Origin: Acidimicrobiales bacterium
Lineage (GTDB): Bacteria; Actinomycetota; Acidimicrobiia; Acidimicrobiales; RAAP-2
NCBI GenBank assembly: GCA_030043315.1
Contig: JASHYA010000322.1
Coordinates: 1-56,602 of the forward strand
DNA length: 56,602 nucleotides
Reading direction: 5' to 3'
The translations under genes and the position numbers were made by a program. Numbering within the stretch: the stretch's first letter is position 1; each line of letters begins with the position of its first letter. The notes beneath the pieces are model-generated. The model saw nothing but the letters and a program-made list of their open reading frames with translations. It ran no database searches and was not told where the DNA came from. Shown piece after piece: positions 7,731 to 33,281 of the stretch.

Positions 7731-7944
7731 CTCCTGCTCCCTTGCTTTGGGACAGGTAATGAACCTGGCTTGTTGCGGGCCGCACCATAGCAAACGTGCG
7801 CGCTTTGCGGCTGGGCGGTCTGTCCTGCGGTCGTCCCGGCGATGCCGACGAGAGTGACGTCCGGGTCGAGGGCGAGCCCGAAGATCGCATGGACGGCGGC
7901 CACGCCGAGAGCGTAGGTAGGAGACGGGCGGACCGTGCCGACCG

Positions 7945-9183: not shown

Positions 9184-9386
9184 CGGTGTGGGCTCCTAGT
9201 CTCGGCGGAACGCTCGACCCGGCGCGGCGACCTCGACCGTCACCGCGATGTCGTGCCCGGACGACCTCCCGAACTCCAAAGACGCCTCTTGAACCTGCCC
9301 GGTGAGCCTATTGAATCGTCGGTCCGAGGAGGCGGAGGAGGGCGGGCGGGGCTCTGGGTACGTCGGTCGGCAGCACAGGACGTCGG

Positions 9387-10511: not shown

Positions 10512-10722
10512 GGACGTCGGTGCCTCGGTTCCTCCGCGTCCGGATACGGCGCTCGACTCGCGGCGGCGCGTTTGGGGCTGCCAGACAGTAGCTTCCCGAG
10601 CTTCCCGCTCGGGGGCCGGCCACGTCCGCCCCCGTGAGGTGGAGAGCCGCGTACGCAGGGGGTTCGCGGCGAGCGGCGGTCGAGCTGCAGGAGCCGTCAC
10701 CCAGACGGCGTTCACGAGACCC

Positions 10723-10787
10723 ATGCAGCACCTATGCAGCATCCGGCAACTCACGACGAGCCCCAGCTGTAGAGGAACCAGCAAGCG
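10723..10787. repeat. two pairs of 8-bp direct repeats with 11-bp spacing in the divergent promoter region
   Basis: ATGCAGCA at 10723 and 10734. CAGCAAGC at 10769 and 10780. They lie in locally AT-richer intergenic DNA. Confidence 0.6.
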
Positions 10788-10833
10788 GGCAGCAAGCAGG
10801 GAGAGCCCAGGTTCAACTACTGTTAGCAGACGC

Positions 10834-10848
10834 GATTCATGGTGAATC
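10834..10848. promoter_or_regulatory. perfect inverted repeat GATTCA-tgg-TGAATC, candidate operator
   Basis: 6-bp arms with a 3-bp spacer. It lies immediately upstream of the SD (GGAGGAGGGAAG) and the ATG at 10872 of the binding-protein gene. Confidence 0.3.
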
Positions 10849-10871
10849 TGGCCATGGAGGAGGGAAGTGGC

Positions 10872-12602
10872 ATGGTACGTAGCGCAGACCAGCCCGGGCT
10901 CGACCACGAGCGACTCGATCCGCTTCGCCGCAACAGGGGACCCATTGCCGAGCATTACATCGACGAGCTCGTCGCGGGGCGCCTCTCGCGCCGTCAATTC
11001 CTCCGATACGGGTCAGCGGTCGGACTTTCGATCCCCCTTATGCACAAGATGCTCGGGGCGTGGCCCGGCTCGTCGTCGAGATCGGCCGAGACCTTGACCA
11101 GTCCCTTGCGCAGCGCCGCGGGCAAGGCGGGCGCGACCATTCGTGCGGGCATACAGGTGCCATCAGGCGCGATCGACCCGATCACGATCGATGACGAGGG
11201 CGCTCTCGAGGTCCTCGGAAACATCGGAGAGTTCCTCGTCTTCACCGATCAGCAGAACAACTACCACCCTTGGCTCGCCACGAGCTGGAGCGCGAACGCG
11301 GACGCCAGCGTCTGGACGTTCAAGATTCGCAAGGGCGTGAAGTTCAACGACGGCACCCCCATGACCGTCGACGATGTCATCTACAGCTTCAAGAGCCAGT
11401 GCACATCGAAGAGCTCCGCCAACGCCCTGTCGGTGTTCGGCGGAACGCTCCTGCCCGACGGCGTCGTAAAGGTGGACACAACAACGGTCGCCTTCCACCT
11501 TGTGCAGCCCGACGGCGGCTTCATCGACGCTGTCAGCGAAGACAACTACAACATGGTCATCGTCCCGAACAACTTCGACTTCTCGAAGTACCAGACAACG
11601 ATGCCGGGCACGGGACGGTTCAAGATGAAGAGCTACACGACGAGCGTGGGCGCCGTTCTCGTGCGCAACCCGTACTACTGGGGGACGCCGGCGTTGCCGT
11701 CGGAGGTCCACATGACCTTCTACCCGACCACAACGCCCATGGTCGCCGCCCTCGAGTCGGACAGCATCGACTGCCTGGACCAGTTCGCGGTGACGACAGC
11801 TCCGCAGCTGCTGGACGGCAGCTACACCGTGATCAGCATCAAGGCTGCCACCCACCGCGAGCTCTCCATGCGCACCGACATCTCGCACTTCAAGAGCAAG
11901 TACGTCCGCCAAGCCATCGCCTACACCCTTGACCGCCCCGCGATCGTGAGCTCGCTGTTCAAGGGTAAGGCCGAGGTCGGCAACGACAATCCTTTCGCTC
12001 CAGTGTTCAAGTCGACGGTGGGCCCGCCCGGCGTCCCGCAGCGCAAGCAGAACCTGAAGCTCGCCAAGGAGCTCCTCGCCAAGGCGGGCGTGAGCCGCGG
12101 TTTCAAGGCGACGCTCTACACCGAGACGGTCCAGGAGATGCCCCACTTCGCAGAGATCGTGAAGGCGTCGGCGGCGCAGATCGGCATCGACATCACCCTC
12201 GTCATCACGACATCGTCGAAGTACTTCGGGACAGGTGTCATCGGGAAGTCGAACTGGCTGGACGGTGAGATGAGCCTCGTGACATACGGCGCGCGAGCGG
12301 TCCCGAACGTCTACCTCGAGGCACCGCTGCAGACGTACAACCCGAGGACGGGTACGGGCGAATGGAACGCGGCGCGGTTCAACACATCGAAATACGACAT
12401 CCTCTCGAAGGAGTTCATCGCAGCCGTCGACCTGTCGAAACAGCGGAGCATCGCCAAGCAGATCGAGACCCTGCTGCTCGACGAGACGCCCATAATCTAC
12501 GCCTACTTCTACGACTACCTCTCCGCCACGCAGAAGGACGTGAAGGGCGTCTACCCGACTGCAGAGGGCCAGTTCTTCCTCTGGAACGCCTCGAAGACCT
12601 GA
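10872..12602 (+). CDS. ABC transporter substrate-binding protein, family 5 (peptide/opine/nickel type), TAT signal
   Basis: Twin-arginine signal SRRQFLRYGSAVGL and a family-5 SBP body. The third ATG of ORF 10839..12602 was chosen because GGAGGAGGGAAG lies 6-9 nt upstream. Confidence 0.85.
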   Translation: MVRSADQPGLDHERLDPLRRNRGPIAEHYIDELVAGRLSRRQFLRYGSAVGLSIPLMHKMLGAWPGSSSRSAETLTSPLRSAAGKAGATIRAGIQVPSGAIDPITIDDEGALEVLGNIGEFLVFTDQQNNYHPWLATSWSANADASVWTFKIRKGVKFNDGTPMTVDDVIYSFKSQCTSKSSANALSVFGGTLLPDGVVKVDTTTVAFHLVQPDGGFIDAVSEDNYNMVIVPNNFDFSKYQTTMPGTGRFKMKSYTTSVGAVLVRNPYYWGTPALPSEVHMTFYPTTTPMVAALESDSIDCLDQFAVTTAPQLLDGSYTVISIKAATHRELSMRTDISHFKSKYVRQAIAYTLDRPAIVSSLFKGKAEVGNDNPFAPVFKSTVGPPGVPQRKQNLKLAKELLAKAGVSRGFKATLYTETVQEMPHFAEIVKASAAQIGIDITLVITTSSKYFGTGVIGKSNWLDGEMSLVTYGARAVPNVYLEAPLQTYNPRTGTGEWNAARFNTSKYDILSKEFIAAVDLSKQRSIAKQIETLLLDETPIIYAYFYDYLSATQKDVKGVYPTAEGQFFLWNASKT

Positions 12603-12660: not shown

Positions 12661-14142
12661 TCAGGGTCGCTCCGTCGCCACCTGCCACGCCGGACCCGTC
12701 CCAGGGCCTTGCTCCACCGCGGCGGCGAAGGCCGCCGCCAGGCGCCCACACTCCTCCCCGAGAGGTCGCCGGGACTCGATGGGCTGGATGTGGGCGCGCA
12801 CGAAGGCGAGCACGTCACGCAGCTTGGGGCTCACATCTCGCCCGGTGACGTGGAGGGCCTGCGAGCAGGTTGCAGCGAGCACCGCAAGCACCTCGTCCAG
12901 GCGGGCGGCCACTTCCCGCTCGGACAAGAACGCGATCGGTGCGGTGATGGCGACGTCGTCCTGCTCCGAGGCGGCGACCTCGGCCGGGGAGAGCAACGTG
13001 GGCTGGGCGAGGCGGCGCATCTCCTCTACGGCTTGGTTCGGGACGTATTCGAGGTAGGTGGTCGAGTGGCCGGTCGTGTAGTCGGTCCCAGGGGGCAGCA
13101 AGCGATCGGGAAGCCCTGAGACCGCACCACGGTGCAGCTTGACGATGTGACGTTGGGCGACGGCGGCGAGGTCGACCCACGCCGCCGACACGGCATCGAC
13201 GGCAGGTGCGGCAGCCGCGTCGTGAAAACCACCGGTCGAGAGGACGTCGGCTTCAGCTTGGCCCGTGGGCAGCAGGAACGTCGGATTGCTGACGACCGAA
13301 CGAAGCCCGCACGTCGCCACCTCCTCCAGACCCCACACGGCTCGCCGTGCCTGACCCAGGAGCCGGGGCAGGATTCGGTAGGCGGCCGGGGCGGACCGCT
13401 GCCGCCGTTCGCCGCCGGTGTCCTCGAGCCAGGAGGCCAGGGCTTCCAAGGCGGCCGAGGCGAAGGGGTCCCGCCACAGCTCCCCGAGCCGGGCGTCGCA
13501 CGCGTCAAGCGGGGCCCGAAAGGCCTCTATGGAGAGGGCCAGGCAGCCCTCCACCAGATCCACACGCCGGCGGGCGAAGATGGCGGTCAACCCCGCCATC
13601 GCGTGGGATGCGGGCGACCCGTTGCCCAGACCGGCCGAGAAGCCCTCGCCGGGGAAGATCCCCTCAGGGCCGCCGGTACGAAGGATGAAACGGGGCATGA
13701 GCTCGCCGGCGGCCACCAGCCCGCGAGCCGGCAGGCGGGCGAGCGGGCCGTCGAGGGAACTGGCGATGGACAGAGCCCGAGCCGGATGGGCGGCGGTCGC
13801 GCCCGAGACCAGCATGGGAAGAGAGGCGAGGACGGTGGCCCGGGACACGTACTCGGGGAGCGTTCCGCCCCCGAAGGACAGCCCCAGGAACGGCCGGGGA
13901 CGGCGGCGCCGGGCCTGAGCTTCCTCCAGTCCGTACCGCCGGCCGGCGTCGGGTCCGGCTCCCGTGGTGACCATGTAGATCGCGGAGTGCTCGTGGCGCG
14001 CCACGTGTTCCTGAAAGGCCGCGTGCGCCGCGGCCATGACCTCGAGCGCGCGGGCCGAGAGCCGGACGCCCTCGCCGCCGAGGGCTACGCGCCGGAGACT
14101 GTCCAGGTTGACGTCGGCAGGCCGGTCGATGAGGACGGTCAC
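12661..14142 (-). CDS. aromatic amino acid lyase-family (HAL/PAL fold) protein lacking the Ala-Ser-Gly MIO triad
   Basis: Family blocks: IYMVTTGAG (Tyr loop), AYRILPRLLGQA, VVSNPTF...STGGFH, EQDDVAITAP. The MIO loop reads RGLVAAGELMPRF where HAL has GSVGASGDLAPL. The GTG at 14142 overlaps the upstream stop (GTGA). Confidence 0.8.
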   Translation of the reverse strand: MTVLIDRPADVNLDSLRRVALGGEGVRLSARALEVMAAAHAAFQEHVARHEHSAIYMVTTGAGPDAGRRYGLEEAQARRRRPRPFLGLSFGGGTLPEYVSRATVLASLPMLVSGATAAHPARALSIASSLDGPLARLPARGLVAAGELMPRFILRTGGPEGIFPGEGFSAGLGNGSPASHAMAGLTAIFARRRVDLVEGCLALSIEAFRAPLDACDARLGELWRDPFASAALEALASWLEDTGGERRQRSAPAAYRILPRLLGQARRAVWGLEEVATCGLRSVVSNPTFLLPTGQAEADVLSTGGFHDAAAAPAVDAVSAAWVDLAAVAQRHIVKLHRGAVSGLPDRLLPPGTDYTTGHSTTYLEYVPNQAVEEMRRLAQPTLLSPAEVAASEQDDVAITAPIAFLSEREVAARLDEVLAVLAATCSQALHVTGRDVSPKLRDVLAFVRAHIQPIESRRPLGEECGRLAAAFAAAVEQGPGTGPAWQVATERP

Positions 14143-15608
14143 GGAACGGTTCCCGCGGTGGGCCCGGTGAGGCCGGCACGTCCTGTCGACGCCGCGGGTG
14201 GGAGGGGGAGGGAGCCGGTGACCGCGATGTCCGAGAGAGCCGCCGCCAGCCGCCCCACCTGAGCGCCCCGGTTCGCGGCTCGTGCGGGAGGGACGTAGGT
14301 ACGAACGAACGCGAGCAGGGGTCCCAGCCCGACCGGCGTGGGACGGTCGGTGAGGTCCAGGGCGTGGCTGGCGACCGCAGCCAGGACGGCCAGAGCCCCG
14401 TCGAGCTGAGCCGCGGCCGTCCACAGCCGCTCGGCGGCGACGAACGTCGGCAGGGCGACGTCTTCTTCACCTCCGTAGACCCCTCCCTCGGACGGGGGAA
14501 GGAACGTGCGGGCGGCGGCGTGGCGGGCCCGCTCGCCCAGGCCGACGGGAACGAACCCGAGGAGTCCCGTCGAAGTTCGACCGCCGGGTCCGGCCAGGCG
14601 GTCGGGCAACAGCGACACCGCCCCCCGATGGAGCTTGGTCGTGTGCCGGTCGGCCAGGGTGCAGAGGTCGGCCCACGTGGCCGCCAATGCGGCCATCGCA
14701 GGGTAGGCGGTCGCCGCGAACGAGCCGCCCGTGCTCAGGAGCGTCCCGTGCCCGCGGCCGTCGGTGGGCGGGAGGAAGACCTGATCCAGGGTCACGGCGC
14801 CGAGTGCGGACCGGGCAACGTCGTCGATCTGCGCCGCCGCCCGTCGGGCCTGTCCCAGGACCGGCGGAAGGACCCGATAGCTCACGGGGGCCTGGTAGGG
14901 ACGCCGGTCGGGGCCGGCGCCGGTCAGCCAGCGGTTGAGCCCGCCGAGGGCCTCGGCGACGAAGGGGTCGCCCCAGAGCCTCCCCAAAGCTGGGTCGTAG
15001 GCGGCGAGAGGGGCGGCCATCGCCTCGACGGAGAGCGCGAAGATGCCTTCGGCCAGAGCCAGGCGTCGGTGGGCCTGGAGGGCGGCGTCGGCGGCCAGTG
15101 CCGCCGAGCCGGGCGAACCGTCCAGCAGGGCCACGGCCTCGGCCTCCTGCAGATCGACCTCCGGCAAGCCTCGCAGCAGGTGGGCCAGGACCAACACCTC
15201 GCCCGCTGACGTCGTCCCCGCAACCGGGACCTCCGGCATGGGGCCGGCCAGCATCGAGGCAAGAGCCACGGCCACTTCGGGCCGACATGCGGCGTGCCCT
15301 TCGAGGAGGTCGGCGAGGCGGGCGAACACGATGCCGCGTACGACCCGCTCGGGAAGCCGAGTCTCCCCGAAGCCGTCGTCGGGCGGCCAAGCGGCCCGCC
15401 ACCCGGCGTCCTCGGCCGCCGGCGGAAGGGTGGCCAGCGGGAGATGAGCAACGGCGCTGTGTTCCAGAAGAAATGTGGCGAAGGAGCGGTGGGCGGCGGC
15501 CATGGCCCGACGTGCGCCGTGCGCCACGACCACCGTCTCCTTGTCGAAAGCCACTCGGCGGTAGTGCTCGAGGGTGATGTCGCCGCGATGGCGGACGGTG
15601 ACGGTCAG
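14139..15608 (-). CDS. degenerate aromatic amino acid lyase-family paralogue (no MIO triad, no Tyr loop)
   Basis: Family blocks: SYRVLPPVLGQA, STGGSF, EEDVALPTF. The MIO loop reads AGTTSAGEVLVLAH. The Tyr-loop region reads VAHLPLATL. The only start compatible with the N-terminal homology is CTG at 15608, overlapping the upstream TGA; the next in-frame GTG is about 17 codons downstream. Confidence 0.7.
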   Translation of the reverse strand: MTVTVRHRGDITLEHYRRVAFDKETVVVAHGARRAMAAAHRSFATFLLEHSAVAHLPLATLPPAAEDAGWRAAWPPDDGFGETRLPERVVRGIVFARLADLLEGHAACRPEVAVALASMLAGPMPEVPVAGTTSAGEVLVLAHLLRGLPEVDLQEAEAVALLDGSPGSAALAADAALQAHRRLALAEGIFALSVEAMAAPLAAYDPALGRLWGDPFVAEALGGLNRWLTGAGPDRRPYQAPVSYRVLPPVLGQARRAAAQIDDVARSALGAVTLDQVFLPPTDGRGHGTLLSTGGSFAATAYPAMAALAATWADLCTLADRHTTKLHRGAVSLLPDRLAGPGGRTSTGLLGFVPVGLGERARHAAARTFLPPSEGGVYGGEEDVALPTFVAAERLWTAAAQLDGALAVLAAVASHALDLTDRPTPVGLGPLLAFVRTYVPPARAANRGAQVGRLAAALSDIAVTGSLPLPPAASTGRAGLTGPTAGTVP

Positions 15609-16576
15609 GTTTGGCCCTGGTAGTCGACGACCGGCAGGCCGGCTTCCCGCCAAGCCACGAAACCGCCGTCGAGGTCGGTGGCGCGGGATAGCCCCAGGAA
15701 TTGGAGCTGCCGGGCCACCAGGCTCGAGGCGTAGCCCTCCATGCAGAACACGATGACGTGACGGTCGTAGGCGGCGATCTCGGAGATGCGGGAGGCGCTC
15801 CGGGGATCGAGGCGCCACTCGATCACGTTGCGAGGGATCGCCACCGCGCCAGGGATCTCGCCGGCCGCCTGGCGCTGCTCGACGGGGCGGATATCGACGA
15901 GCACCGCCCCCCCAGCCAAGGCGGTGGCGGCTTCGTGCGGCGAGAGCCGGACCAGGTGGCTCCGAGCCCTGGCCAGCAGCTCGTCGATGCTGTACGAGGC
16001 GGGTTGGCCGGGGGGGGTCGGCTCGGGGGAGTCGGTGGCGGCCGTCTCGACGGCCCCGAGGTCTCCGTCGCTCCACTGCTGATAGAAGGTCATGCTGGCC
16101 AGGGGTGGGGAGTAGGCGTGCAGGCTGACGGCGGGGCCTGGCCCCTCGTTGCCGACCACGTGGACGTAGGCGGCCCCGAAGCTGGCCCCTTCACCCGTGC
16201 CGAGCACCCTGCGGGAGAGCCGCAGCGGGCGGCGGGCGCTGTACCGCTCGACCAGCGATCCCTCCACGACCGTGAACGATCCGGAGGAGCCGCCGTGATC
16301 GTGGAGCCTCGTCTCTTGGGAGACGGCCCAGCCCTGCAGCCAAACGTCGACGTTCGACGCCAGGTGGAGCCGCTTGTACCAGCGGTGCGCAGCGTCGATC
16401 TGCACCACCGGTCGCCAGAGCTGCTCCGCGTGGGCGACGGCGGCCGTGAGGAGGGCCAGAGAGCGTGGAGGGATCCGGGACGAACCGAGTCGCAGGGAGT
16501 CGACGAGCGCGTCGATAGAACGATCGATTCCGCCCGAGCGAGGGTCGGCAACGGTCACCGACATCGAAACGAGCAC
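15605..16576 (-). CDS. cysteine dioxygenase type I (cupin) fused to a rhodanese domain
   Basis: CDO motifs: RLHDHGGSSGSFTVVEGSL and SLHAYSPPL. The C-terminal rhodanese domain reads LVDIRP...VIVFCMEGYAS, with the active-site Cys in CMEGY. The start is GTG at 16576 or ATG at 16564; AAGGAGGGAGG lies upstream. Confidence 0.8.
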   Translation of the reverse strand: MLVSMSVTVADPRSGGIDRSIDALVDSLRLGSSRIPPRSLALLTAAVAHAEQLWRPVVQIDAAHRWYKRLHLASNVDVWLQGWAVSQETRLHDHGGSSGSFTVVEGSLVERYSARRPLRLSRRVLGTGEGASFGAAYVHVVGNEGPGPAVSLHAYSPPLASMTFYQQWSDGDLGAVETAATDSPEPTPPGQPASYSIDELLARARSHLVRLSPHEAATALAGGAVLVDIRPVEQRQAAGEIPGAVAIPRNVIEWRLDPRSASRISEIAAYDRHVIVFCMEGYASSLVARQLQFLGLSRATDLDGGFVAWREAGLPVVDYQGQT

Positions 16577-16651
16577 CTCCCTCCTTGGGACACGAGGATA
16601 CCTCTCGGATCGGCGGAGCTCGACACGCCCGAGCCAGCCGACACAGCCGTC

Positions 16652-17191
16652 TTACTGGCGTCGCAGGCGCCCGTAGTAGGGGTGGGTGACCTCGTCTCTG
16701 TCGTCGATGTGGCGCTGTACGGCTTCGGGCGGCCGTCCCTCGACGGCCTCGGCGATCGCCTGCCCGGCAGCATGTCGGGCTGCTTCCAAGACGGCAGGCT
16801 CGCTCTCGGCCGCGGGGTCCAGGTACACGGAGACCAGGACGGTCGTCTCCTGGTCGGCTTCGAGGTGTCCGACAGCCACCGCGTCGAGCACGGCCCGGGC
16901 TACCCCGACCTGAACTGCGCCGGCGAGCAAGGTCTCCTGCCGTTCGTCCGTGGCGGCGACCTTGTTGACCAGGATCGTGGGTGGGTAGAGGGTCTCGTAC
17001 GAGGGCTGGTCCCGGCCCAGGCAGGCAAGGATGGGCGTGTAGCCGGGCGACGGGGCCGTGAAGGCGGTGATCATGGCGGCGGCCGTGGGGGTCCCCCGGC
17101 GGGCCAGGATCACGTTCAAGTGGACGCCGTTCGGCGCGGTGCCACCCCATCCTTGGGCGATGCGTCCGTCGAGGTCCCGGCCTGCTGCCAT
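16652..17191 (-). CDS. formaldehyde-activating enzyme (Fae) family protein
   Basis: 179 aa. Matches from my memory of Fae: GVHLNVILARRGTP ~ VAHIDLIIGPRGSP, NKVAATDERQ ~ NKVTINDARQ, VARAVLDAVAVG ~ VAMAVQDAVAEG, and a C-terminal THPYY ~ THPF. ATG with a GGAGG SD. Confidence 0.55.
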   Translation of the reverse strand: MAAGRDLDGRIAQGWGGTAPNGVHLNVILARRGTPTAAAMITAFTAPSPGYTPILACLGRDQPSYETLYPPTILVNKVAATDERQETLLAGAVQVGVARAVLDAVAVGHLEADQETTVLVSVYLDPAAESEPAVLEAARHAAGQAIAEAVEGRPPEAVQRHIDDRDEVTHPYYGRLRRQ

Positions 17192-17370
17192 CTTGTGCCT
17201 CCAGTCGCCGCGGTGGTCCTGATCAGCACAGGATGCCAGAGCGGCGGCACAGCAGGCTGGGCCGGTGAACGGCGTGAGCAGGTCGAGGAAGCGGCGGCGC
17301 CTTCAGATCGACTTGACGCTGAAACTCCCCGTCGATCACGCTTCACAACGGTGTCGCCCGAGGCCGTGAC

Positions 17371-18516
17371 ATGCCGCCGACGGTGAGGTCCCAGGCGGCG
17401 GTGCTGGAGAAGGTGGGTGCCAGCCTCCAGCTGGCCGAGCTGGATCTCGCCGCGCCCGGACCGCAGGAAGTCCTGGTCCGGATCCACGCCAGTGGCGTCT
17501 GCCACAGCGACCTCAGCGTCATGACCGGAGTGATCGGCACGCCTCTCCCTGCCGTCCTCGGCCACGAGGCGGCCGGCGTGGTGGAGGCGGTCGGGCCCGG
17601 CGTCACTCGCGTGGTGCCCGGTGATCACGTGGTCCTCTCATGGAGTCCGTCATGCGGTGCCTGCGACGAGTGCCTCCGTGACCTCCCCCAGCTGTGCACG
17701 GCCGCGTGGCCGGCGATGTTCGCCGGCGGCCTCCTCGACGGGACGTCCCGACTCTCCCGTGCCGGAGAGCCCGTCTACCACTATTCGCTGATCTCCTCGT
17801 TCGCCGAGCGGGCCGTGGTTTCCGAGCGCTCCTGCGTCGTCATCCCCCGAGAGGCCCCGTTCGAGGTGGCTTCCATCGTGGGGTGCGCGGTGACGACGGG
17901 CGTCGGCGCAGTCTGGAACACCGCCAGGGTCCGTCCGGGCGATCGGGTGGCCGTCCTCGGTATCGGAGGGGTGGGGCTGAGCGCAGTGATGGGCGCTGCC
18001 GCCGTCGGGGCATGGCCGATAGTCGCCGTCGACCGGGTGCCCGACAAGCTGGAGCTGGCCCGCAGCTGCGGTGCCACCCACGCCGTGCAATGGGCAGGAT
18101 CGGCGGAGGACACCGCCGAGGCGATCCGGTCGGCGTCGGGCGGAGGAGTGGACTACGCGGTCGAGGCGATCGGCCGCCCGGAGGTGGGGTTGGCGGCGTT
18201 TCTCTCGACCCGGGCCCGGGGAGCGGCCGTCCTGATCGGAATCTCCAAGGAAGGCGAGACCTTGGACCTTCCGCTCCTCTCGATCCCCCGGCTCGAGCGG
18301 CGCGTGCTTGGCAGCATCTACGGCTCGGCACGGCCCGAGCGGGACTTCCGGCTGATCCTGGATCTCTACCTCGCCGGCCGTCTACCGCTCGATCGACTGG
18401 TCTCGGGTCGGCTGCCCCTGGATGGCGTCAACGAAGCCCTCGAGCTCGTCCGGGCCGGCTTGGCCACCCGCACGGTGCTCCTTCCGACCACGGAGGCCAC
18501 CGGCTCTCACCGATAG
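17371..18516 (+). CDS. Zn-dependent alcohol dehydrogenase, class III / S-(hydroxymethyl)mycothiol dehydrogenase-like
   Basis: GVCHSDLSV...GHEAAGVV, structural Zn CGACDEC, and GIGGVGL. The C-terminus DLYLAGRLPLDRLVSGRLPLDGVNEA closely resembles mycothiol-dependent formaldehyde dehydrogenases. Confidence 0.85.
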   Translation: MPPTVRSQAAVLEKVGASLQLAELDLAAPGPQEVLVRIHASGVCHSDLSVMTGVIGTPLPAVLGHEAAGVVEAVGPGVTRVVPGDHVVLSWSPSCGACDECLRDLPQLCTAAWPAMFAGGLLDGTSRLSRAGEPVYHYSLISSFAERAVVSERSCVVIPREAPFEVASIVGCAVTTGVGAVWNTARVRPGDRVAVLGIGGVGLSAVMGAAAVGAWPIVAVDRVPDKLELARSCGATHAVQWAGSAEDTAEAIRSASGGGVDYAVEAIGRPEVGLAAFLSTRARGAAVLIGISKEGETLDLPLLSIPRLERRVLGSIYGSARPERDFRLILDLYLAGRLPLDRLVSGRLPLDGVNEALELVRAGLATRTVLLPTTEATGSHR

Positions 18517-18526
18517 CGTCGGTCGA

Positions 18527-19657
18527 ATGCTGACCCGCGCCGAGCTCGAAGGCCCGAACGCGAAAGCCGCCCTCGCCCGCCTGCGCGCCGTCGGACCGGT
18601 CGCGTGGGTCTCCGATCTCGAGGCCTGGGTGGTGACCGGCTACGACGTCGCGGTCGAGGTGTTGCGCGACGCCCGGACCTTCACCGTGGACGACCCCCGC
18701 TTCTCGACCGCACAGGTGGTCGGCGCCAGCATGCTGTCACTCGACGGCGGCAGCCACCGCCGGCATCGGGATCCGTTCGTGCCGCCGTTCCGGCCCGGCC
18801 AGGTCGAGTCCAGCTTCGGGCCCGCCGTCCGCCGGCTCGCGGCCGACCTCGTCGAGCTCATCCGGCCCGCTGGTCACGGCGACCTGCGCGCCGGCCTGGC
18901 GAGGCCCCTCGCTGCAGGCACCATCGCCGCCGCGCTCGACCTGCCCGTGGACGCCGCGACCGTGCTCGAGTGGTACACCGCCATCGCCGGGGCCGTGTCG
19001 GCCATCACGGCAGGCGAGCCCCCGGGTTCCGCGGCTCCGGCCGCCGTCGGCCACCTCGCCGCCAGCGCTCAGGCGGCAGCCGGCTCTCCGGGGTCGGTGC
19101 TCGGCGCGGCGGCGGCCAGCCTCAGCCGCGCGGAGGTCGCGTCCAACGCCGCGGTGGTGCTGTTCGGCGGCGTCGAGACCACCGAGGCCATGATCGCCAA
19201 CGCCTTCGTGCACCTTTTGAGCTCCGACCTCACGGGTGCCGGCCGAGATGACGCCTCGTGGCTCGCCGCGGCGGTCGAGGAGTCGCTGCGCATGGAGCCG
19301 GCCGCCGCCTTCGTCGACCGTTACGCCACCGCCGACGCGACCGTTGGCGGCGCCCGGATCCGAGCCGGGGACCTGGTGCGGGTGTCGCTCAGCGGCGCCA
19401 ACCGCGACCCCGCGGTCTTCCCCGACCCCGACACCTTCGACCCGGAGCGCTCCAACGTGCGCGCCCAACTCTCGTTCGCCCGCGGGCCGCACACCTGCGT
19501 GGCCATGGACCTGGCCCGGCTCGAGACGCGCACTGCCCTGGAGGCCGCCTGGCGCATGTTGCCCGGGCTGCGCCTGGTCGGCCCGACGCCGATCCGGGGC
19601 CTCGTGTTCCGCAAACCGGACACGGTGTCCGTCGTCTGGGATGAAGGATCGAGGTGA
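18527..19657 (+). CDS. cytochrome P450 (short, 376 aa)
   Basis: I-helix FGGVETT, EESLR (ExxR) and heme loop FARGPHTCVAMDLAR. The ATG at 18527 lies 11 nt after the ADH stop. No ferredoxin or reductase gene is present in the window. Confidence 0.85.
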   Translation: MLTRAELEGPNAKAALARLRAVGPVAWVSDLEAWVVTGYDVAVEVLRDARTFTVDDPRFSTAQVVGASMLSLDGGSHRRHRDPFVPPFRPGQVESSFGPAVRRLAADLVELIRPAGHGDLRAGLARPLAAGTIAAALDLPVDAATVLEWYTAIAGAVSAITAGEPPGSAAPAAVGHLAASAQAAAGSPGSVLGAAAASLSRAEVASNAAVVLFGGVETTEAMIANAFVHLLSSDLTGAGRDDASWLAAAVEESLRMEPAAAFVDRYATADATVGGARIRAGDLVRVSLSGANRDPAVFPDPDTFDPERSNVRAQLSFARGPHTCVAMDLARLETRTALEAAWRMLPGLRLVGPTPIRGLVFRKPDTVSVVWDEGSR

Positions 19658-19740
19658 ACCCTTGGAGTCGGTGCGGTGATCGGGCCGCGCCCACTCCGGC
19701 TTCCTTCCGCGCCACCGGCCGTTCGACGCGGCCCTACCTC

Positions 19741-21255
19741 TTAACCGGCGGGGTCCACGCCACTGGGGCCGGCGTCTGCAACGTCCCCCCGGCGAACCAC
19801 ATCCACGAGCGGCTCCAGGTCGGACGGAAGCGCCTCCCCCCGCCCGGCGAAAGGCACGATCCCCCGGACCAGCTCATAGGCGCGACCGGTGCCGGCACCG
19901 AGGCGGGAGGGCCGGCGGAGATCGACCGCCTGGGCCGCCACGGTCAACTCCACGGCCACCGTGCGCGCCGCCAGGTCCACCATGTCTGCGAGGCGGCGGG
20001 CCGACAGGGGTGCCATCGTCGTTCGATCCTCGATCCCGTCCGCCTTGCTGGTGCTCACCACCTCGAAAGACACGGGGTAGGCGAGGCTTCGGGCTTCGGC
20101 TGCGAGCGCCTGGGCGGTGAGGGCCAGCTCGGCCAGCGCATCCTCGCCGGTGTCCGCTTCCGCCGCGAGACCGGCGGGCAGGCCCGAGAACGGGGTCTGC
20201 AGCAGCTTCACCGTGCGCTCGGCGGCGGAGGTCACGACGGGCGCCAGGGCGATGCGGGCGAAGTCGAGGGCGGCGGCGACGGGAGCTGCGTCGAAATTGC
20301 CGACCGAGACGATCTGCCGGTCGGCGAGGACGACCGCGGGGTTGCCCTGAGCCGAGTTGAGCTCGGTCTCGACCGTCGCCCGCACGTAGGTGAGCGCGTC
20401 CCTGGCCGCGCCATGGATCTGCGGCACGCAGCGGAACGTGAGAGGATCCTGGAGGTTGCGCGCCGTGCCCGGATCGAAGATGTAGCTCCCTTGGAGCATC
20501 GCCCGGAGGCGGCCGACGGTGGTCCTTATCCCCGGGTACGGCCGTAGCTCTCCCACCGCCGGGTGCAATGGTGAGGGGTTGGCGGCGAACGCCTCGAGGT
20601 CCAGGGCCGCGGCGACATCGCTCGCGTCCAACAGGCGCTCGGCCGCGGCGACTGCGAGTGCGGCCCAGCCCGTGGAGAAGGCGTTGGCGTTGATGAGCCC
20701 CGGACCCTCCCCCTCCCGGAGGGAGAACCCGGACTGGCGAAGGAGCCCCTCGGCCAGGTCCGCCATGGGCCCGAGATCGGAGATCCCTACGGAGCTCAGG
20801 GTCCGCACCCGGGGCACGGTGCCTTGGTTGAGGGCGGCGAGGACCATGTCGGCGAGCTCGGGACGCACACCCGTCGCTCCCCGGGCATAGCCGTTCACGA
20901 GGCAGGTCATGGTCGCACGGACGACCTCGGGTGGTGCCGGGGGGCCCTGCGAGATCAGGTGACCGGACACGAGGAAGCGGGTGAACCGAAGACGTGTGGC
21001 GGGGTCGAGGTCGACCCTCTTGCGCTCGGCCACGGCGGTCGTGAGACCGTAGACGCGTTCGTTCGCACGCAGCGCCTCCTCGACCACCTGACGCGCCGCC
21101 GCGATCCGGTCCCGGGCCGCCGGCGCCAGCCCGACCAGCACGCCCCGCTCGGCGACGGCGACGAGCGAATCGAGGTTCAGCGAAGAGCCGTCGAGCAGCA
21201 CCGTTGGAGTCACAACGGGCGGAGCTTCGCCCGGGCGAGCGGCAGACGGTGTCAA
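19741..21255 (-). CDS. aromatic amino acid lyase-family (HAL-like) protein lacking the Ala-Ser-Gly MIO triad
   Basis: Strong HAL blocks: RVYGLTTA, LQDPLTFRCVPQIHGAA, SAQGNPAV...SVGNFDAAPVA, GIEDRTTMAP. The MIO loop reads SSVGISDLGPMADLA, one residue short with no ASG. The start is uncertain: TTG at 21255 or GTG at 21213 (the latter gives MTPTVLLDG, like its paralogues). Confidence 0.8.
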   Translation of the reverse strand: MTPSAARPGEAPPVVTPTVLLDGSSLNLDSLVAVAERGVLVGLAPAARDRIAAARQVVEEALRANERVYGLTTAVAERKRVDLDPATRLRFTRFLVSGHLISQGPPAPPEVVRATMTCLVNGYARGATGVRPELADMVLAALNQGTVPRVRTLSSVGISDLGPMADLAEGLLRQSGFSLREGEGPGLINANAFSTGWAALAVAAAERLLDASDVAAALDLEAFAANPSPLHPAVGELRPYPGIRTTVGRLRAMLQGSYIFDPGTARNLQDPLTFRCVPQIHGAARDALTYVRATVETELNSAQGNPAVVLADRQIVSVGNFDAAPVAAALDFARIALAPVVTSAAERTVKLLQTPFSGLPAGLAAEADTGEDALAELALTAQALAAEARSLAYPVSFEVVSTSKADGIEDRTTMAPLSARRLADMVDLAARTVAVELTVAAQAVDLRRPSRLGAGTGRAYELVRGIVPFAGRGEALPSDLEPLVDVVRRGDVADAGPSGVDPAG

Positions 21256-21400: not shown

Positions 21401-22018
21401 TCAGATCTCCTGTTCGGGGTAGCCGGTCAGGCCGATTCCGAACTCTTGGCCCGCGTCGGCGAGTGCGTCGAACAGGAACTGCCCAGAAGAACGGTCGGAC
21501 ACGATGAGGTAGGACGGGTCTCCATCGACGTCATCGCGCACGACGGTCGAGACGACGGCTGCGACACGGCTCCGGAAGCTGGAGCCGTTCGGCGTGGCGC
21601 GGTCGGACAGGTCGATGGCGCACACCTTCTCGAGGGCCCTTCTGGCGCTCTCTCCGCTGAGACGGAGCACCACGCTCCCATGCGTCACGTCGATGACCGT
21701 CACGAGCGACGTGCAGCCGCGGAGCCGGGAGGCGATCATCTCCGAGACGGCGTCGGACCTCCCGGTGGGCGCGAGGACGAGCCAGCTGTCCGGCCCGGTC
21801 CCGACGATCAGGCTGCCGTCCTCGCGACGGGCACGGAGGTGCTCGCACAACAACGGGGCGACCTCGCCCGGCGCCCCCCGCACGAGCACCTTCGAGAGGG
21901 CGGTCATGTCGGCGAGGCGGAGCGCCGCCTTCGAGTGCGCGCTGCTCACCTCCCATGCGCCCCGCGTTCCCGTCGGTCCGGCGGGTGCGATCGGCGAGCG
22001 TGCGACGGGCTCAGCCAC
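21401..22018 (-). CDS. soxG: sarcosine oxidase-family gamma subunit (SoxG / N-methylglutamate dehydrogenase MgdD type)
   Basis: SoxG-like sequence: ARSPIAP..., LRLADMTALSKVLVRG, VIDVTHGSVVLRLSG. The GTG at 22018 overlaps the soxA end by 8 nt; the alternative start at 22051 would overlap by 41 nt. Confidence 0.75.
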   Translation of the reverse strand: MAEPVARSPIAPAGPTGTRGAWEVSSAHSKAALRLADMTALSKVLVRGAPGEVAPLLCEHLRARREDGSLIVGTGPDSWLVLAPTGRSDAVSEMIASRLRGCTSLVTVIDVTHGSVVLRLSGESARRALEKVCAIDLSDRATPNGSSFRSRVAAVVSTVVRDDVDGDPSYLIVSDRSSGQFLFDALADAGQEFGIGLTGYPEQEI

Positions 22019-24845
22019 GGAGCCGTTCCCCCGCCGGGTCGAAGTGGGCATGCTCCTCCATGACGCGCGCCGTCACCCTCGTCCCGTCCGGCTGCTTGAC
22101 CGTCACCACGGTGCCCGCGTGGGCGAGGTCGGCGGACACGATGCCGAGGCAGATCGAGCGCCCCAGCGTCGGCGAGAAGCGGCTCGAGGTGACCCTCCCC
22201 TCGATCTCGTTGGCGCCGCTCACGATCTGGCTCGCTTCGGGCGGCACGACGGTCGGGTCTGTCGGCTGCAGGCCGACGAGACGGAGCTCGTCTGACCGCT
22301 CCGACTGCCAGACGAGCTCGGGCCTGCCGGCGAAGTCCTCCTTGTCGAGCTTCACGAGCCAGTCGAGGCCAGCCGTGAACGCCTGCGTCAGCCCGTCGGT
22401 GTCCTGGCCGACGATGAAGTGGCCCTTCTCGAGACGCATGATCCGCTGCGCCTCGAGGCCGAAGGGCCCGACCCCGAGGTCTGCTCCGGCCGCCATGAGG
22501 GCCTCCCACACGTACAGGCCAAAGGCGGCCGGCACGTGGACCTCGTAACTCAGCTCCCCCGTGAAGCCGATCCGCCACATGAGGCAGTTGGCGACGCCGG
22601 CGATCGTCCCCTGCCGCACCTGCATGTACTTGAAGGCATCCGGGCCGAGGTCGACGTCGTCGACAAGCCGTCGGAGCAGCTCACGGGAGTTCGGCCCGGC
22701 GACGTTGATCGAGGCGAACGCGCTCGTCATCTCGGTGACATGGACCGACCAATCCGTAAACGTCGTCTGTAGCCAGTTCTCGATCCACTCGTAGATCGCG
22801 CTCGCGCCGGAGCTCGTCGTCGACATGAAGTAGTGGTCGGGACCGAGGTGGCCCGTCACACCATCGTCGGCGACGACCCCGTCCTCGCCGCACATCACTC
22901 CGTAACGGACCGAACCGATGTCGAGCTTCGACCACTTGTTCACATAGAGGAAGTTGAGGAGCCTCGGGACGTCCGGCCCGCGCAGATCCAACTTGCCGAG
23001 CGGCGTGACGTCGATGAGCCCGACGTTCTCGCGGACGTTGCGCACCTCGGAGGCCGGGTCCCCGTAGTGCTCGGGCCGAATCCACTGCCCGGCGACGATG
23101 GGCCGGGCTCGGACCGCCTCGTGCCAGGGCTGCATCGGCGAATAGCGGACTGGCTCGAGGTTGCGGCCGGCGAGCGCCCCCAGGCTGATGGGAACGTGCG
23201 GCGGGCGCCACACGGTGGTGCCCGTCTCGGCGACCGTTCGCCCGGTCGACTCGGCGAGCACCGCGACGGTGTTGATCGTCTCGAGCTTTCCCTGGGACGG
23301 CCCCATCGTCGCCGTCGTGTAACGCTTCACGAGCTCGACCGAGTCGTACCCCTCCTGAGCCGCCGAGACGAGGTCCTTCGACGAGACATCCTCGGACAGG
23401 TCGACGAACCCGTGGGTGCGCGACCTGAAGAGGGCGGGGTGGTCGGCGGGCTCGAGGCGTGGGAGCGCGGTGAGCGGGCCGTGCCCGTCGAGGGTCTCGA
23501 GTGCCCGGCGCGCCGCACGCAGCCCCGTTGCCCTGCCGTGCTCGACGAGGAGATCGACGTCGCCGTCGCCGACGAGACCACCCGTTGCGAAGACGTCCGA
23601 AGGCAGGTCGTCACCCGGCACGAAGCGGGCGGCACGGTCGCAGTAGCGCGGCTTCACGCCGGTCATGTTCACGAGAAGCGTCGGCGCCGTCCACCCGGCC
23701 GCCGTCACGAGGAGGTCGCACTCGACCCGGGCGCCGTCTCCCGTCTCGACTTCCGTCACCCCGCCGCGCCCGCGCGCCCTCAGAAGGGCGCCACCGCGCC
23801 GCGCGTCGACGACGGCCGCCACCTCGGCGCCGGCACGCTCGAGGGCTGCGGCGGCTGCCTCGCCGCTCTGGTTCCCCGTGAAGACGACCGCCCGTTCGCC
23901 TGGGCGGACCGCGTAGAGGTTGACGAGCCGGCTCACCGCGCTCGAGAGCATCACGCCGGGAAGGTCGTTGCCCTCGAAGACGTACGGCCGCTCGATGAGC
24001 CCGACCGCCACGACGACACTTTTCGCACGCGCCTTCACGAGCCGCTCGGTCACGTGCGGCATGCTTCGCTGCAGGACGGCGACCCAGTTGTCGTCGTAGC
24101 GTCCGGTCACCGCCGAGTTCGTCAGCACTTCGATCTGCTCGTGCGCCGCCACCGCCGCGCGCAGCTCCTGCAGTCGTGAGAGCGCGACCTCGTCGCCATA
24201 TCGGAGGTGGCCACCGAGCTCGTGCTCCTCCTCGACCAGCATGACCTCTGCCCCCGCCTCTGCCGCGGCGATTGCTGCGGCCATCCCTGCCGGGCCTCCC
24301 CCGGCGACGAGGACGTCGGGATGGGCGAAACGCTTGTCGTAGTCGCCGTGCGGGGACGATGCCGAGACGCGTCCGCCGGCTGCGAACCGTTGCAGGACGC
24401 GCTCGTACGCCGGCCACAACCGCTGCGGCTTGATGAAGGTCTTGTAGTAGAAGCCGGCACTGAGGAAGGGCCCGACGGCCTGGTTCGCCGCGCCGACGTC
24501 GAAGCGCAGCGAGGGCCAGGAGTGCAGGGCGCGCACGTCCATGCCGGCAGCAACCTGGCGGTGCGACGCGCGGACGTTCGGCTCATCGTCCACCTGCACG
24601 AGGCAACCGGGGTCGTGGAAGGTGGCCGTGAGGATGCCGCGCGGGCGGTGGTACTTGAAGCTGCGGGAGAGGACGCGGTCGCCGGCCGCCGCCAGGGCGC
24701 TCGAGATGGTGTCGCCGTCGTAGGCGGCACGCGAGGCGCCGTTCCAGTAGAAGGTGAGACTCCGAGAGCGGTCGATGACCTCGCCCGGCTGCGGCCCGAT
24801 GCGCCGAGTCGGACCGGCAACCACCCTCCCCCCGATCCGGATCAC
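22011..24845 (-). CDS. soxA: sarcosine oxidase-family alpha subunit (SoxA / MgdC type) with a C-terminal folate-binding GcvT-like domain
   Basis: N-terminus F.WNG....YDGDTISSALAAAG, SFKYHRPRG, NAD/FAD fold DVLVAGGGPAGMAAA, and a C-terminal aminomethyltransferase-like domain. The GTG at 24845 overlaps the soxD stop (GTGA). Confidence 0.9.
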   Translation of the reverse strand: MIRIGGRVVAGPTRRIGPQPGEVIDRSRSLTFYWNGASRAAYDGDTISSALAAAGDRVLSRSFKYHRPRGILTATFHDPGCLVQVDDEPNVRASHRQVAAGMDVRALHSWPSLRFDVGAANQAVGPFLSAGFYYKTFIKPQRLWPAYERVLQRFAAGGRVSASSPHGDYDKRFAHPDVLVAGGGPAGMAAAIAAAEAGAEVMLVEEEHELGGHLRYGDEVALSRLQELRAAVAAHEQIEVLTNSAVTGRYDDNWVAVLQRSMPHVTERLVKARAKSVVVAVGLIERPYVFEGNDLPGVMLSSAVSRLVNLYAVRPGERAVVFTGNQSGEAAAAALERAGAEVAAVVDARRGGALLRARGRGGVTEVETGDGARVECDLLVTAAGWTAPTLLVNMTGVKPRYCDRAARFVPGDDLPSDVFATGGLVGDGDVDLLVEHGRATGLRAARRALETLDGHGPLTALPRLEPADHPALFRSRTHGFVDLSEDVSSKDLVSAAQEGYDSVELVKRYTTATMGPSQGKLETINTVAVLAESTGRTVAETGTTVWRPPHVPISLGALAGRNLEPVRYSPMQPWHEAVRARPIVAGQWIRPEHYGDPASEVRNVRENVGLIDVTPLGKLDLRGPDVPRLLNFLYVNKWSKLDIGSVRYGVMCGEDGVVADDGVTGHLGPDHYFMSTTSSGASAIYEWIENWLQTTFTDWSVHVTEMTSAFASINVAGPNSRELLRRLVDDVDLGPDAFKYMQVRQGTIAGVANCLMWRIGFTGELSYEVHVPAAFGLYVWEALMAAGADLGVGPFGLEAQRIMRLEKGHFIVGQDTDGLTQAFTAGLDWLVKLDKEDFAGRPELVWQSERSDELRLVGLQPTDPTVVPPEASQIVSGANEIEGRVTSSRFSPTLGRSICLGIVSADLAHAGTVVTVKQPDGTRVTARVMEEHAHFDPAGERLRG

Positions 24846-25138
24846 GAGCTCCCGCCCCCCGCCTCCGCACCTGCATTGCTCCTCTCGAAGCGGGGCTTCG
24901 GGCGGGTGGCACGGACCTCGTTCGTGACGGTGTGACGTTCCGCCACGATGAACTTGCCGCAGCCGGCAGCGTGGAACCACTGCTCGGTCGTCCAACCGGC
25001 CGGGTTGGACTTCGAATACAGGTAGGTCCGCCACTCAGTTGGGGACGTGTCCGGGCCCGGCCGCCGCTTCTCCTCGCCGATGTAGCTGAACTCGTCGGAG
25101 TTGCGGGGCCCGCAGTGCGGACACGGGATGCGGATCAT
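24842..25138 (-). CDS. soxD: sarcosine oxidase-family delta subunit (SoxD / MgdB type)
   Basis: MIRIPCPHCGPRNSDEFSYIGE... is the canonical SoxD Zn-ribbon N-terminus. 98 aa. Confidence 0.9.
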   Translation of the reverse strand: MIRIPCPHCGPRNSDEFSYIGEEKRRPGPDTSPTEWRTYLYSKSNPAGWTTEQWFHAAGCGKFIVAERHTVTNEVRATRPKPRFERSNAGAEAGGGSS

Positions 25139-25166
25139 CGCCCCTTCTCCCTCGCCTCGCCCGGCA

Positions 25167-33272: not shown

Positions 33273-33281
33273 ACCTGCCTC

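Follow-up and report, generated by a model that had tools for sequence, protein, structure and literature searches.

We analyzed a 56,602-nucleotide stretch of DNA (the window; approximately 70% G+C) from an Acidimicrobiales bacterium (GenBank assembly GCA_030043315.1, contig JASHYA010000322.1), in which seven genes lie close together between positions 12661 and 21255. Three of them encode relatives of histidine ammonia-lyase (HAL) that lack the 4-methylideneimidazole-5-one (MIO) group, here named LyA, LyB and LyG, and a fourth encodes a fusion of a cysteine dioxygenase (CDO) domain with a rhodanese domain. An earlier note on this DNA had read all seven genes as a single pathway. Comparison with related loci shows that the conserved core consists of the CDO::rhodanese fusion and the MIO-less HAL-family lyases. 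Judged from its sequence, the region as a whole would be best explained, at a little better than even confidence, as the entry part of an island that breaks down alpha-N-trimethyl amino acids (betaines), the most probable substrates being ergothioneine and hercynine, its counterpart without sulfur.

All seven open reading frames (ORFs) were recovered at their earlier coordinates, and Pfam/NCBIfam matches and reading of the sequence bore out the overlaps and family names given before. The third-position G+C content (GC3) is 0.84 to 0.92 for all seven genes, as expected of coding DNA. The minus-strand string starts with a gene resembling formaldehyde-activating enzyme (Fae-like, 16652..17191; PF08714, 94.5 bits). 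It is followed by the fusion gene (CDO_I::Rhodanese by Pfam, 15605..16564; 319 aa from the ATG at 16564, which is preceded by GGAGG), the degenerate partner lyase LyB (14139..15608; 489 aa; PF00221, E 3e-29) and the lyase LyA (12661..14142; 493 aa, GTG start; PF00221 Lyase_aromatic, E 1e-39). Read from the sequence, the LyB stop and the LyA start share GTGA, and the fusion stop overlaps a CTG as CTGA. This CTG coincides with the aligned N-termini of LyB orthologs and is the probable LyB start; the alternative start is a TTG at 15653. A divergent intergenic region of 179 bp (17192..17370), the length given in the earlier note, separates the Fae-like gene from two plus-strand genes, a medium-chain Zn-dependent alcohol dehydrogenase (ADH, 17371..18516; ADH_N and ADH_zinc_N) and a P450 (18527..19657; 376 aa; PF00067). 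The spacer between ADH and P450 is 10 nt, not 11 nt as noted before. The third lyase gene, LyG (19741..21255, minus strand; PF00221, E 8e-107), belongs to the ergothionase/histidine-betaine-lyase group. The divergent region has no Rfam match and no match to the sigma-70 consensus, and regulatory RNA, promoter and terminator signals sought in this region were not found. Related loci, cited below by L numbers, were surveyed by tblastn: 86 loci centered on LyA/LyB relatives and 80 metagenomic loci centered on the fusion (166 in total). De novo clustering of neighboring genes in this high-GC DNA yielded many antisense shadow ORFs, and a cluster was used only where Pfam or an annotated homolog confirmed it.

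Active sites of the lyases and fold of the fusion

MIO-less members of the HAL family are trimethylamine-lyases; those characterized so far are ergothionase, histidine-betaine lyase and N(pi)-methyl-histidine-betaine lyase (bioRxiv 10.64898/2026.04.22.720169; 10.1101/2025.08.13.670108). According to the same two preprints, such enzymes are recognized by a Tyr that acts as the base, a carboxylate clamp of Gln, Arg and Asn, a His/Glu imidazole pair and, in the Treponema denticola enzyme (Td_ETL), Lys384 for the ergothioneine thiolate, which is essential to ergothionase activity. We located the equivalent positions by motif and give them in Pseudomonas putida HAL numbering, except for Lys384 and Tyr54 (Td_ETL numbering). 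At the MIO site (G-A-S-G-D), LyG has G-I-S-D, LyA A-A-G-E and LyB S-A-G-E, each with a one-residue deletion. The Ala-Ser-Gly triad is missing in all three lyases, in agreement with the C-N elimination without MIO proposed earlier. The catalytic Tyr (Td_ETL Tyr54, HAL Tyr53) is kept in LyG and LyA; LyB lacks the xYGxxTGxG motif and had rightly been called degenerate. The carboxylate-binding residues Gln277/Arg283/Asn313 are all present in LyG; the corresponding residues are Ser, Arg and Asn in LyA and Gln, Arg and Asp in LyB. The imidazole-binding pair His83/Glu414 is His and Glu in LyG, and Leu and Asp in LyA. The Lys384 position is occupied by Leu in LyG, Tyr in LyA and Phe in LyB; none of the window lyases carries the Lys of an ergothionase proper.

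LyG is the most conventional of the three. It keeps Tyr53, His83, Asn195, Gln277, Arg283, Asn313 and Glu414 and is closest to HAL and to the PDB ergothionase 6s7j (E 3e-52). A full residue set without Lys384 is the pattern used to predict histidine betaine, not ergothioneine, as the substrate (bioRxiv preprints above). Because LyG keeps all histidine-betaine-lyase residues and has Leu in place of Lys384, it is predicted to be a hercynine-type trimethylamine-lyase. The T. denticola ergothionase (ETL, 6s7j) and the Shewanella enzymes Swoo_3913, SO_3057 and SO_3299, for which trimethylamine is the leaving group (bioRxiv preprints), share with the window lyases the PF00221 fold, the absence of MIO and, LyB excepted, the catalytic Tyr. 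LyG is likewise one residue shorter at the MIO site and matches them in every residue that binds the carboxylate or the imidazole, but its Leu at the Lys384 position contrasts with Asn or Gln in the Shewanella hercynine-type enzymes. The window lyases appear to be cytoplasmic, catabolic and linked to amine oxidation, whereas those of Shewanella reside in the periplasm and have flavocytochrome reductases as their linked partners. LyA and LyB differ further from all of these in forming a separate clade, in lacking equivalents of His83 and Glu414 and in being paired.

LyA and LyB are 41% identical to each other. LyA, which keeps Tyr53, Asn195, Arg283, Asn313, Phe329 and His330 and has Ser for Gln277 and A-G-E at the MIO site, is by these residues the putative catalytic member of the pair. 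The Tyr53 motif is gone from LyB, which shows the substitutions Asn195Asp, Asn313Asp and Phe329Ser and keeps Gln277 and Arg283; the full Gln277/Arg283/Asn313 set arises in the pair only when LyA and LyB are combined. Since LyB is still 53 to 57% identical to its B orthologs, it is under selection. The LyA/LyB clade is rare (130 clusters in 5.8e9 proteins; ~250 relatives in 185,579 species genomes). It conserves Tyr53, Asn195, Gln277, Arg283, Asn313 and His330 as well as A-G-E at the MIO site, with Ala, Leu or Arg replacing His83 and Asp or Asn replacing Glu414. Most relatives in the clade are single-copy. In a neighbor-joining tree (no bootstrap) the members of the 'A' lineage from Actinomycetota, Gamma- and Alphaproteobacteria and Dehalococcoidia form a monophyletic group, and every A-type gene is adjoined by another lyase from within this large clade, either B-type or, in L002 and L003, a second A-type. 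The A/B pair with overlapping stop and start codons is kept in ~15 loci across phyla. The window pair shows complementary residue losses, and so do the pairs of four Acidimicrobiales-type loci and of a single soil contig (L001 and L004 are examples). In these pairs B has lost the Tyr motif, Asn195, Asn313 and Phe329/His330 and retains Gln277 and Arg283; A retains what B has lost and has Ser, Thr or Leu for Gln277. HAL-family active sites are assembled from more than one subunit. As the losses are complementary and the sites span subunits, the sequences suggest that LyA and LyB may form an obligate A2B2 heteromer with two complete sites. The asparagines concerned have a recognized role, as Asn260 and Asn384 of phenylalanine ammonia-lyase (PAL), which correspond to HAL Asn195 and Asn313, are active-site residues (PMC11427684). 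The equivalents of Tyr110, Tyr351 and Arg354 are likewise active-site residues in HAL/PAL. The two A-type lyases of L002 (10001-15896) and L003 (an alphaproteobacterial metagenome-assembled genome, MAG) are separated by 3 kb and lack a B-type partner, which departs from the otherwise constant association of A with a B-type gene; they are surrounded by RraA-like, enoyl-CoA hydratase, fatty-acid-desaturase and dihydroxy-acid-dehydratase genes.

The fusion finds its best PDB sequence matches in the ergothioneine dioxygenase (ETDO) of Thermocatellispora tengchongensis (8qfl-8qfr, E 1e-15), compared with 4e-8 for Bacillus subtilis CDO. In a structure model with a pLDDT of 89.8, the N-terminal domain aligns with ETDO at a TM score of 0.85 and 32% identity (23-26% identity to B. 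subtilis CDO), and ETDO ranks ahead of the B. subtilis and mammalian cysteine dioxygenases as the nearest solved fold. Both proteins have the cupin thiol-dioxygenase fold, a 3-His site and an H-A-Y-S-P-P-L segment. In the alignment of the fusion family the 3-His site, HAYSPPL and the rhodanese Cys are invariant; H88, H90, H135, H149 and Y151 are invariant and align with ETDO. The titles of the ETDO PDB entries name H147A and Y149F variants, which correspond to the His/Tyr pair present in the fusion. ETDO is a stand-alone protein of ~180 residues, whereas the protein of the window continues into a C-terminal rhodanese domain that has the active-site Cys, and the stop codon of its gene overlaps a lyase start. 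The sulfur-oxidation capability assigned to this gene in the earlier note holds up well: the nearest solved structure of the CDO domain is an ergothioneine dioxygenase, and the fusion repeatedly adjoins MIO-less lyases. The fusion family comprises at least 524 clusters, mostly actinobacterial, and carries no functional name.

The rhodanese domain could aid desulfination, capture sulfite in the form of thiosulfate or take the sulfur off itself, in the last case much as EanB would in reverse. CstB and PRF are persulfide dioxygenase-rhodanese fusions in which the rhodanese handles the sulfite, thiosulfate or persulfide product. They have the metallo-beta-lactamase (ETHE1) fold and are not known to be linked to a lyase, whereas the window fusion is a CDO-type cupin. 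A second kind of fusion was found in L025, where a single 647-aa ORF (13264-15207, minus strand) encodes a rhodanese domain together with a MIO-less LyG-like lyase. Its rhodanese part is 62% identical to the window rhodanese domain, with the active-site Cys present, and genes for UbiD and a UbiX-like flavoprotein lie directly upstream on the same strand. This 'Rosetta stone' link shows a connection of the rhodanese domain with the lyase step, in addition to that with the dioxygenase.

Conserved neighborhood of the fusion and the lyases

Among the 86 lyase-centered loci no Fae-like gene, no P450 and a single ADH homolog were found, and among the 80 fusion-centered loci Fae, ADH, P450 and trimethylamine dehydrogenase were all absent. 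These censuses rule out the seven-gene cluster as a conserved unit. The neighborhood comparison proposed in the earlier note therefore gave a divided answer: the fusion with MIO-less lyases recurs, and the co-localization of the Fae-like, ADH and P450 genes is not conserved. The genes that do recur around the lyases encode a solute-binding protein (18 of 86), an amidohydrolase (14), UbiD (11), an M20 peptidase (10), a urocanase-like protein (5), an S-Me-THD-like protein (5) and trimethylamine dehydrogenase (2, plus 2 weaker matches). The lyase-centered set contains one full-length match to the fusion (L032, adjacent to the lyase) in addition to the rhodanese-lyase protein of L025. In the fusion-centered set a MIO-less lyase is the commonest genuine neighbor, present within the sequenced flanks of 10 of 80 loci.

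In the loci of the two closest members of the fusion family (L089 and L090), the next gene is a lyase with a 4-nt overlap. We considered an A/B-type lyase as the coupled partner of the fusion elsewhere and ruled it out, as the lyase overlapping the fusion stop in both loci is a LyG ortholog (55-56% identity). L089 contains a B-then-A pair, the fusion followed by LyG, a trimethylamine dehydrogenase gene (83% identity to that of the window), an Fe-S protein, electron transfer flavoprotein (ETF) and a permease; it is the window gene set rearranged, minus Fae, ADH and P450. Seven of the ten lyases near fusion homologs are of a third type, LyC6, encoded 157 to 1179 nt upstream of the fusion gene (six within 366 nt) in peat and soil metagenomes (L098, L104, L105, L109, L114, L146 and L151). 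LyC6 has C-A-G-E at the MIO site, Lys at the Lys384 position and Arg at the His83 position, with Glu414 kept. Lyases adjoining fusion homologs elsewhere (the LyC6 and L001_G types) have Lys or Arg at the Lys384 position.

A second conserved arrangement is the lyase trio with urocanase-like, S-Me-THD-like, amidohydrolase and M20 genes in L001, L005, L006 and L015; a single lyase has the same company in L085. The gene order in Acidimicrobiales MAGs is amidohydrolase, urocanase-like, S-Me-THD-like, M20 peptidase, LyG-like, LyB-like and LyA-like. The urocanase-like protein of these MAGs scores ~100 bits more against 7ned, which we take to be thiourocanate hydratase, than against ordinary urocanases. 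With the MIO-less lyases, the ETDO-like domain and such strings of histidine-derivative genes in relatives, the ergothioneine-type substrate suggested in the earlier note is a reasonable candidate. Trimethylamine dehydrogenase homologs (41-83% identity to that of the window) adjoin clade lyases in L012, L070, L075 and L089, on contigs from Acidiferrobacteraceae, Udaeobacter, Rhodospirillales and Actinobacteria; L075 and L089 additionally carry ETF and an Fe-S/CCG protein. This adjacency, found also in the window contig, is indirect support for the predicted release of trimethylamine by the window lyases. The earlier note had missed two points, namely that the fate of trimethylamine is encoded in the window and that the conserved partner of the fusion elsewhere is the third lyase and not the pair. 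Genes of two further families are found repeatedly: homocysteine-S-methyltransferase-like (PF02574) in L025 and L089, and DUF427 in L004, L025, L036 and L047.

A probable methylated-amine island

The rest of the window indicates that the cluster lies within a probable island for methylated-amine catabolism. A trimethylamine (or dimethylamine) dehydrogenase gene at 44403..46829 (minus strand) matches PDB 1djn, a trimethylamine dehydrogenase with an FMN domain and ADP-binding domains, over its full length with E 2e-266 (window residues 103-815 against chain residues 1-715), a similarity that fits trimethylamine or dimethylamine preference alike; it is 83% identical to the gene adjoining the LyG ortholog in L089. 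Genes for ETF beta, ETF alpha and an Fe-S/CCG oxidoreductase (39591..43873, plus strand; Pfam) are syntenic with L089 (59-70% identity) and L075 and, by sequence, are the likely electron acceptor chain for the amine dehydrogenase. Directly upstream of LyG, genes at 21401..26522 (minus strand) encode a heterotetrameric enzyme resembling sarcosine oxidase or N-methylglutamate dehydrogenase (Pfam SoxG, GCV_T, SO_alpha_A3 and DAO), with NCBIfam matches to soxA, soxB and soxG that are all below cut-off. The window has further GcvT-type proteins beyond these genes, one of which resembles the C-terminal half of trimethylamine-N-oxide demethylase. An N-methylglutamate-synthase-like trio and a gamma-glutamylmethylamide-synthetase-like type III glutamine synthetase lie at 31878..36567 (minus strand; Pfam Glu_synthase, GXGXG, GATase and Gln-synt_C; NCBIfam TIGR03105). 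A glutamate-synthase-like trio with a type III glutamine synthetase is the pattern of the N-methylglutamate pathway. The window thus has homologs of the methylotroph trimethylamine dehydrogenase/ETF and N-methylglutamate systems, including gmaS/mgs/mgd-like genes. Unlike those systems, its contig joins amine oxidation to predicted betaine-cleaving lyases, and the synteny is direct in L089.

Transport and regulatory genes are also present. An Opp/Dpp-type ABC transporter with a fused ATPase and two permeases (3692..8114, minus strand; Pfam) has permease orthologs (58-76% identity) that adjoin lyases in L007, L032, L052 and L090. A family-5 solute-binding protein gene (10839..12602, plus strand; Pfam SBP_bac_5) is convergent on LyA, and SBP_bac_5 homologs occur in 18 of 86 lyase-centered and 8 of 80 fusion-centered loci. 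An enolase-superfamily MR_MLE protein (7945..9195, minus strand; Pfam) is repeatedly found alongside these genes. With 76% identity to L025:17556-18764 and 68% to L052:13516-14682, it is conserved close to the lyases on three actinobacterial contigs. A function as betaine epimerase (HpbD-like) was considered for this protein and is not supported, as its best PDB matches are uncharacterized enolase-superfamily proteins. Between the MR_MLE and binding-protein genes lies a second Zn-dependent ADH (9387..10997, minus strand; ADH_N and ADH_zinc_N), whose ORF as listed extends too far at the N-terminus. A TetR regulator (48902..49759, minus strand) has a C-terminal domain of the BetI type and is a candidate betaine-responsive repressor for the island.

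Several other genes were noted in the window. A PAD_porph agmatine-deiminase-like gene is followed on the opposite strand by urease alpha and fused gamma-beta subunit genes (51364..54827), and no accessory urease genes are visible in the window. A PhyH-family Fe/2-oxoglutarate dioxygenase gene adjoins an amino-acid permease gene (37342..39868, minus strand); the permease is 51% identical to that of L089, and no PhyH homolog was detected in any related locus. The minus-strand ORF called at 36682..37341 has no Pfam match. Because a Usp fragment of L089 matches the plus strand at 37096..37335 (57% identity), the true gene here is probably a plus-strand universal stress protein. LigD (phosphoesterase and ligase) and Ku genes for non-homologous end joining (574..3611), at one end of the contig, are unrelated to the cluster.

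A proposed route from betaines to trimethylamine

The proposed route would start with uptake of the substrate, possibly via the adjacent Opp-type ABC system. Homology and gene linkage suggest that the fusion would then oxidize the thione/thiol sulfur to the sulfinate, as ETDO does; sulfur would exit as sulfite or thiosulfate, and the rhodanese cysteine may join in its removal or disposal. LyG, with its conserved catalytic residues, would strip trimethylamine from histidine betaine to give urocanate by Tyr-mediated abstraction of the beta-proton, without MIO. The residue patterns further suggest that LyA and LyB form a heterotetramer with sites to which LyA contributes its Tyr loop, Asn195 and Asn313 and LyB its Gln277 and Arg283, and that this enzyme may take trimethylamine off a related betaine not bound via the His83/Glu414 pair. 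Trimethylamine would be oxidized by trimethylamine dehydrogenase/ETF and then by the N-methylglutamate pathway, a step for which homology and synteny are both strong. The Fae-like protein and ADH may be a lineage-specific addition that plausibly handles the aldehyde or formaldehyde released when amines are demethylated, and the P450 would stand outside this scheme.

Ergothioneine catabolism is said to run through five steps (ergothionase, thiourocanate hydratase, thiohydantoin desulfurase, hydantoinase and carbamoylase). Orthologs of the window lyase trio stand in Acidimicrobiales MAGs in a string with urocanase-like, S-Me-THD-like, amidohydrolase and M20 genes, which resembles this pathway. 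The window itself lacks all four downstream genes and has the dioxygenase::rhodanese fusion instead, which would imply oxidative and not hydrolytic removal of sulfur. A bolder proposal, which we make tentatively and with rather low confidence, is that LyA/LyB is the first obligate heteromer of the HAL/PAL/ergothionase superfamily (A2B2, with two complete and two dead sites) and that its combination with the ETDO-like::rhodanese fusion would amount to an aerobic route not described before, from an S-oxidized or otherwise modified ergothioneine-type betaine to trimethylamine. Such a route would tie a major microbial thiol directly to methylotrophic amine oxidation in soil Actinobacteria.

A number of observations weigh against breakdown of ergothioneine and hercynine by this route. 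The fusion is only 32% identical to ETDO, ~85% of the loci of its family have no lyase in the available flanks, and the family may have a broader role in sulfur metabolism. The ETDO pathway reportedly employs a separate metal-dependent desulfinase. No urocanase, HutI, thiohydantoin-desulfurase or carbamoylase gene is present in the window, so the fate of the carbon skeleton is not locally encoded; for urocanase, our homolog search agrees with the caveat of the earlier note. Lacking equivalents of His83, Glu414 and Lys384, the LyA/LyB clade does not appear to be a canonical ergothionase or hercynine lyase. Both copies are intact in L089 and in the proteobacterial pairs, and the allotment of HAL active-site residues to individual subunits is presumptive. 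UbiD, often with UbiX, is found beside single-copy clade lyases in 11 of 86 loci (L025, L038, L043, L045, L067, L070, L073, L075, L083, L084 and L085) and also on the JGI contig of P0012. These prenyl-FMN decarboxylases would decarboxylate an acrylate product, which hints at a different downstream route, and this context is compatible with aromatic betaines.

Some of these observations would also fit lyases that are trimethylamine-lyases for other betaines (tryptophan, tyrosine, phenylalanine or an unknown thiol betaine), with the fusion as a general thiol or persulfide oxidizer that is loosely linked to them. We regard this alternative as unlikely, though still worth weighing. It would account for the loss of the imidazole-binding His83 and Glu414 in LyA, LyB and the single-copy clade, for the UbiD/UbiX genes, whose products act on aryl-acrylic acids, for the many fusion-family loci without a lyase and for one distant fusion homolog in an unrelated context; dioxygenase-rhodanese fusions that handle persulfide are moreover a known kind. 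However, LyG keeps the full histidine-binding set, and the nearest homologs of the fusion are nearly all linked to lyases, two of them by overlapping stop and start codons. For the dioxygenase domain, ETDO beats B. subtilis CDO by seven orders of magnitude in E-value, and a urocanase-like gene accompanies the lyase clade in two distant lineages.

The remaining genes of the cluster bear on the original suggestion that all seven form one new pathway, in which the P450 demethylates and Fae and a mycothiol-type formaldehyde dehydrogenase clear the formaldehyde. The Fae-like protein scores 94.5 against PF08714 (gathering score 27) and is ~35% identical to M. extorquens Fae (1y5y), but its 82 bits against TIGR03126 fall below the equivalog cut-off of 118. 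Its family is actinobacterial (297 clusters, varied contexts), and no tetrahydromethanopterin-linked C1 genes are among the Pfam annotations of the window. The ADH is below every NCBIfam cut-off (TIGR03989, the best, 305/440; TIGR03451 288/513; TIGR02818 276/544) and its best PDB matches are class I ADHs; we therefore rejected the mycothiol or class III formaldehyde dehydrogenase assignment. Both proteins are thus below their cut-offs (Fae equivalog and MscR). The two formaldehyde-handling enzymes of the earlier note come down to family names, as does the oxidative demethylation ascribed to the P450. The P450 is bona fide but generic: its translation contains the heme-Cys motif FARGPHTCVA, ExxR (EESLR) and the I-helix GGxETT (GGVETTE), and its PDB matches are generic macrolide-type CYPs (~E 1e-32). 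In Saccharopolyspora erythraea a Fae-like gene is the last of a string that includes aldehyde dehydrogenase and transporter genes, and an ADH 46% identical to that of the window lies 3.7 kb upstream of it. This arrangement suggests that the Fae-like and ADH genes form a small aldehyde-handling module.

A seven-gene pathway would agree with the tight packing of the genes, their shared divergent promoter region, the place of the Fae-like gene at the head of the lyase string, the S. erythraea arrangement and the formaldehyde generated by the whole island. We nevertheless consider it improbable. The Fae-like gene and P450 occur in none of the 166 related loci and an ADH homolog in one, and from the syntenic L089 all three are missing, although the genes for the pair, the fusion, LyG, amine dehydrogenase and ETF are there. 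The Fae-like and P450 genes are tied to the lyases by adjacency in one contig alone. The ADH at 288 bits is below the mycothiol-dependent enzyme cut-off of 513, the Fae-like protein is below its own equivalog cut-off, and the window lacks the tetrahydromethanopterin genes. A biosynthetic locus for a secondary metabolite, in which the lyases make aryl-acrylate building blocks that the P450 tailors, is highly improbable: biosynthetic clusters of actinobacteria often contain P450s and enzymes of the HAL/PAL/TAL family, and the best NCBIfam matches of the P450 are natural-product CYPs, but Pfam annotation of the 56 kb reveals no synthase, ligase, nonribosomal peptide synthetase or polyketide synthase gene, the surroundings are transporter and amine-oxidation genes, and MIO-less enzymes cannot deaminate ordinary amino acids (bioRxiv preprints above).

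The proposed catabolic island for ergothioneine-type betaines, as a whole, is assembled from known kinds of components (ETDO-like, ergothionase-like and trimethylamine oxidation) and is not a new kind of system. Three of its features are unreported: the fusion, the pairing of lyases with complementary degeneration, and the direct link of these genes to trimethylamine oxidation. As betaines, ergothioneine and hercynine abound in microbes and in the diet; their breakdown yields trimethylamine, and to our knowledge few enzymes that degrade them are known. If the proposed route is correct, a widespread uncharacterized dioxygenase::rhodanese fusion would be the likely oxidative desulfurizing step, and a rare and likewise uncharacterized lyase clade would be added to betaine breakdown, with possibly the first heteromeric enzyme in a superfamily that is homotetrameric in textbooks. 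The region would also provide a direct genomic link from betaine cleavage to complete trimethylamine oxidation in Actinobacteria.

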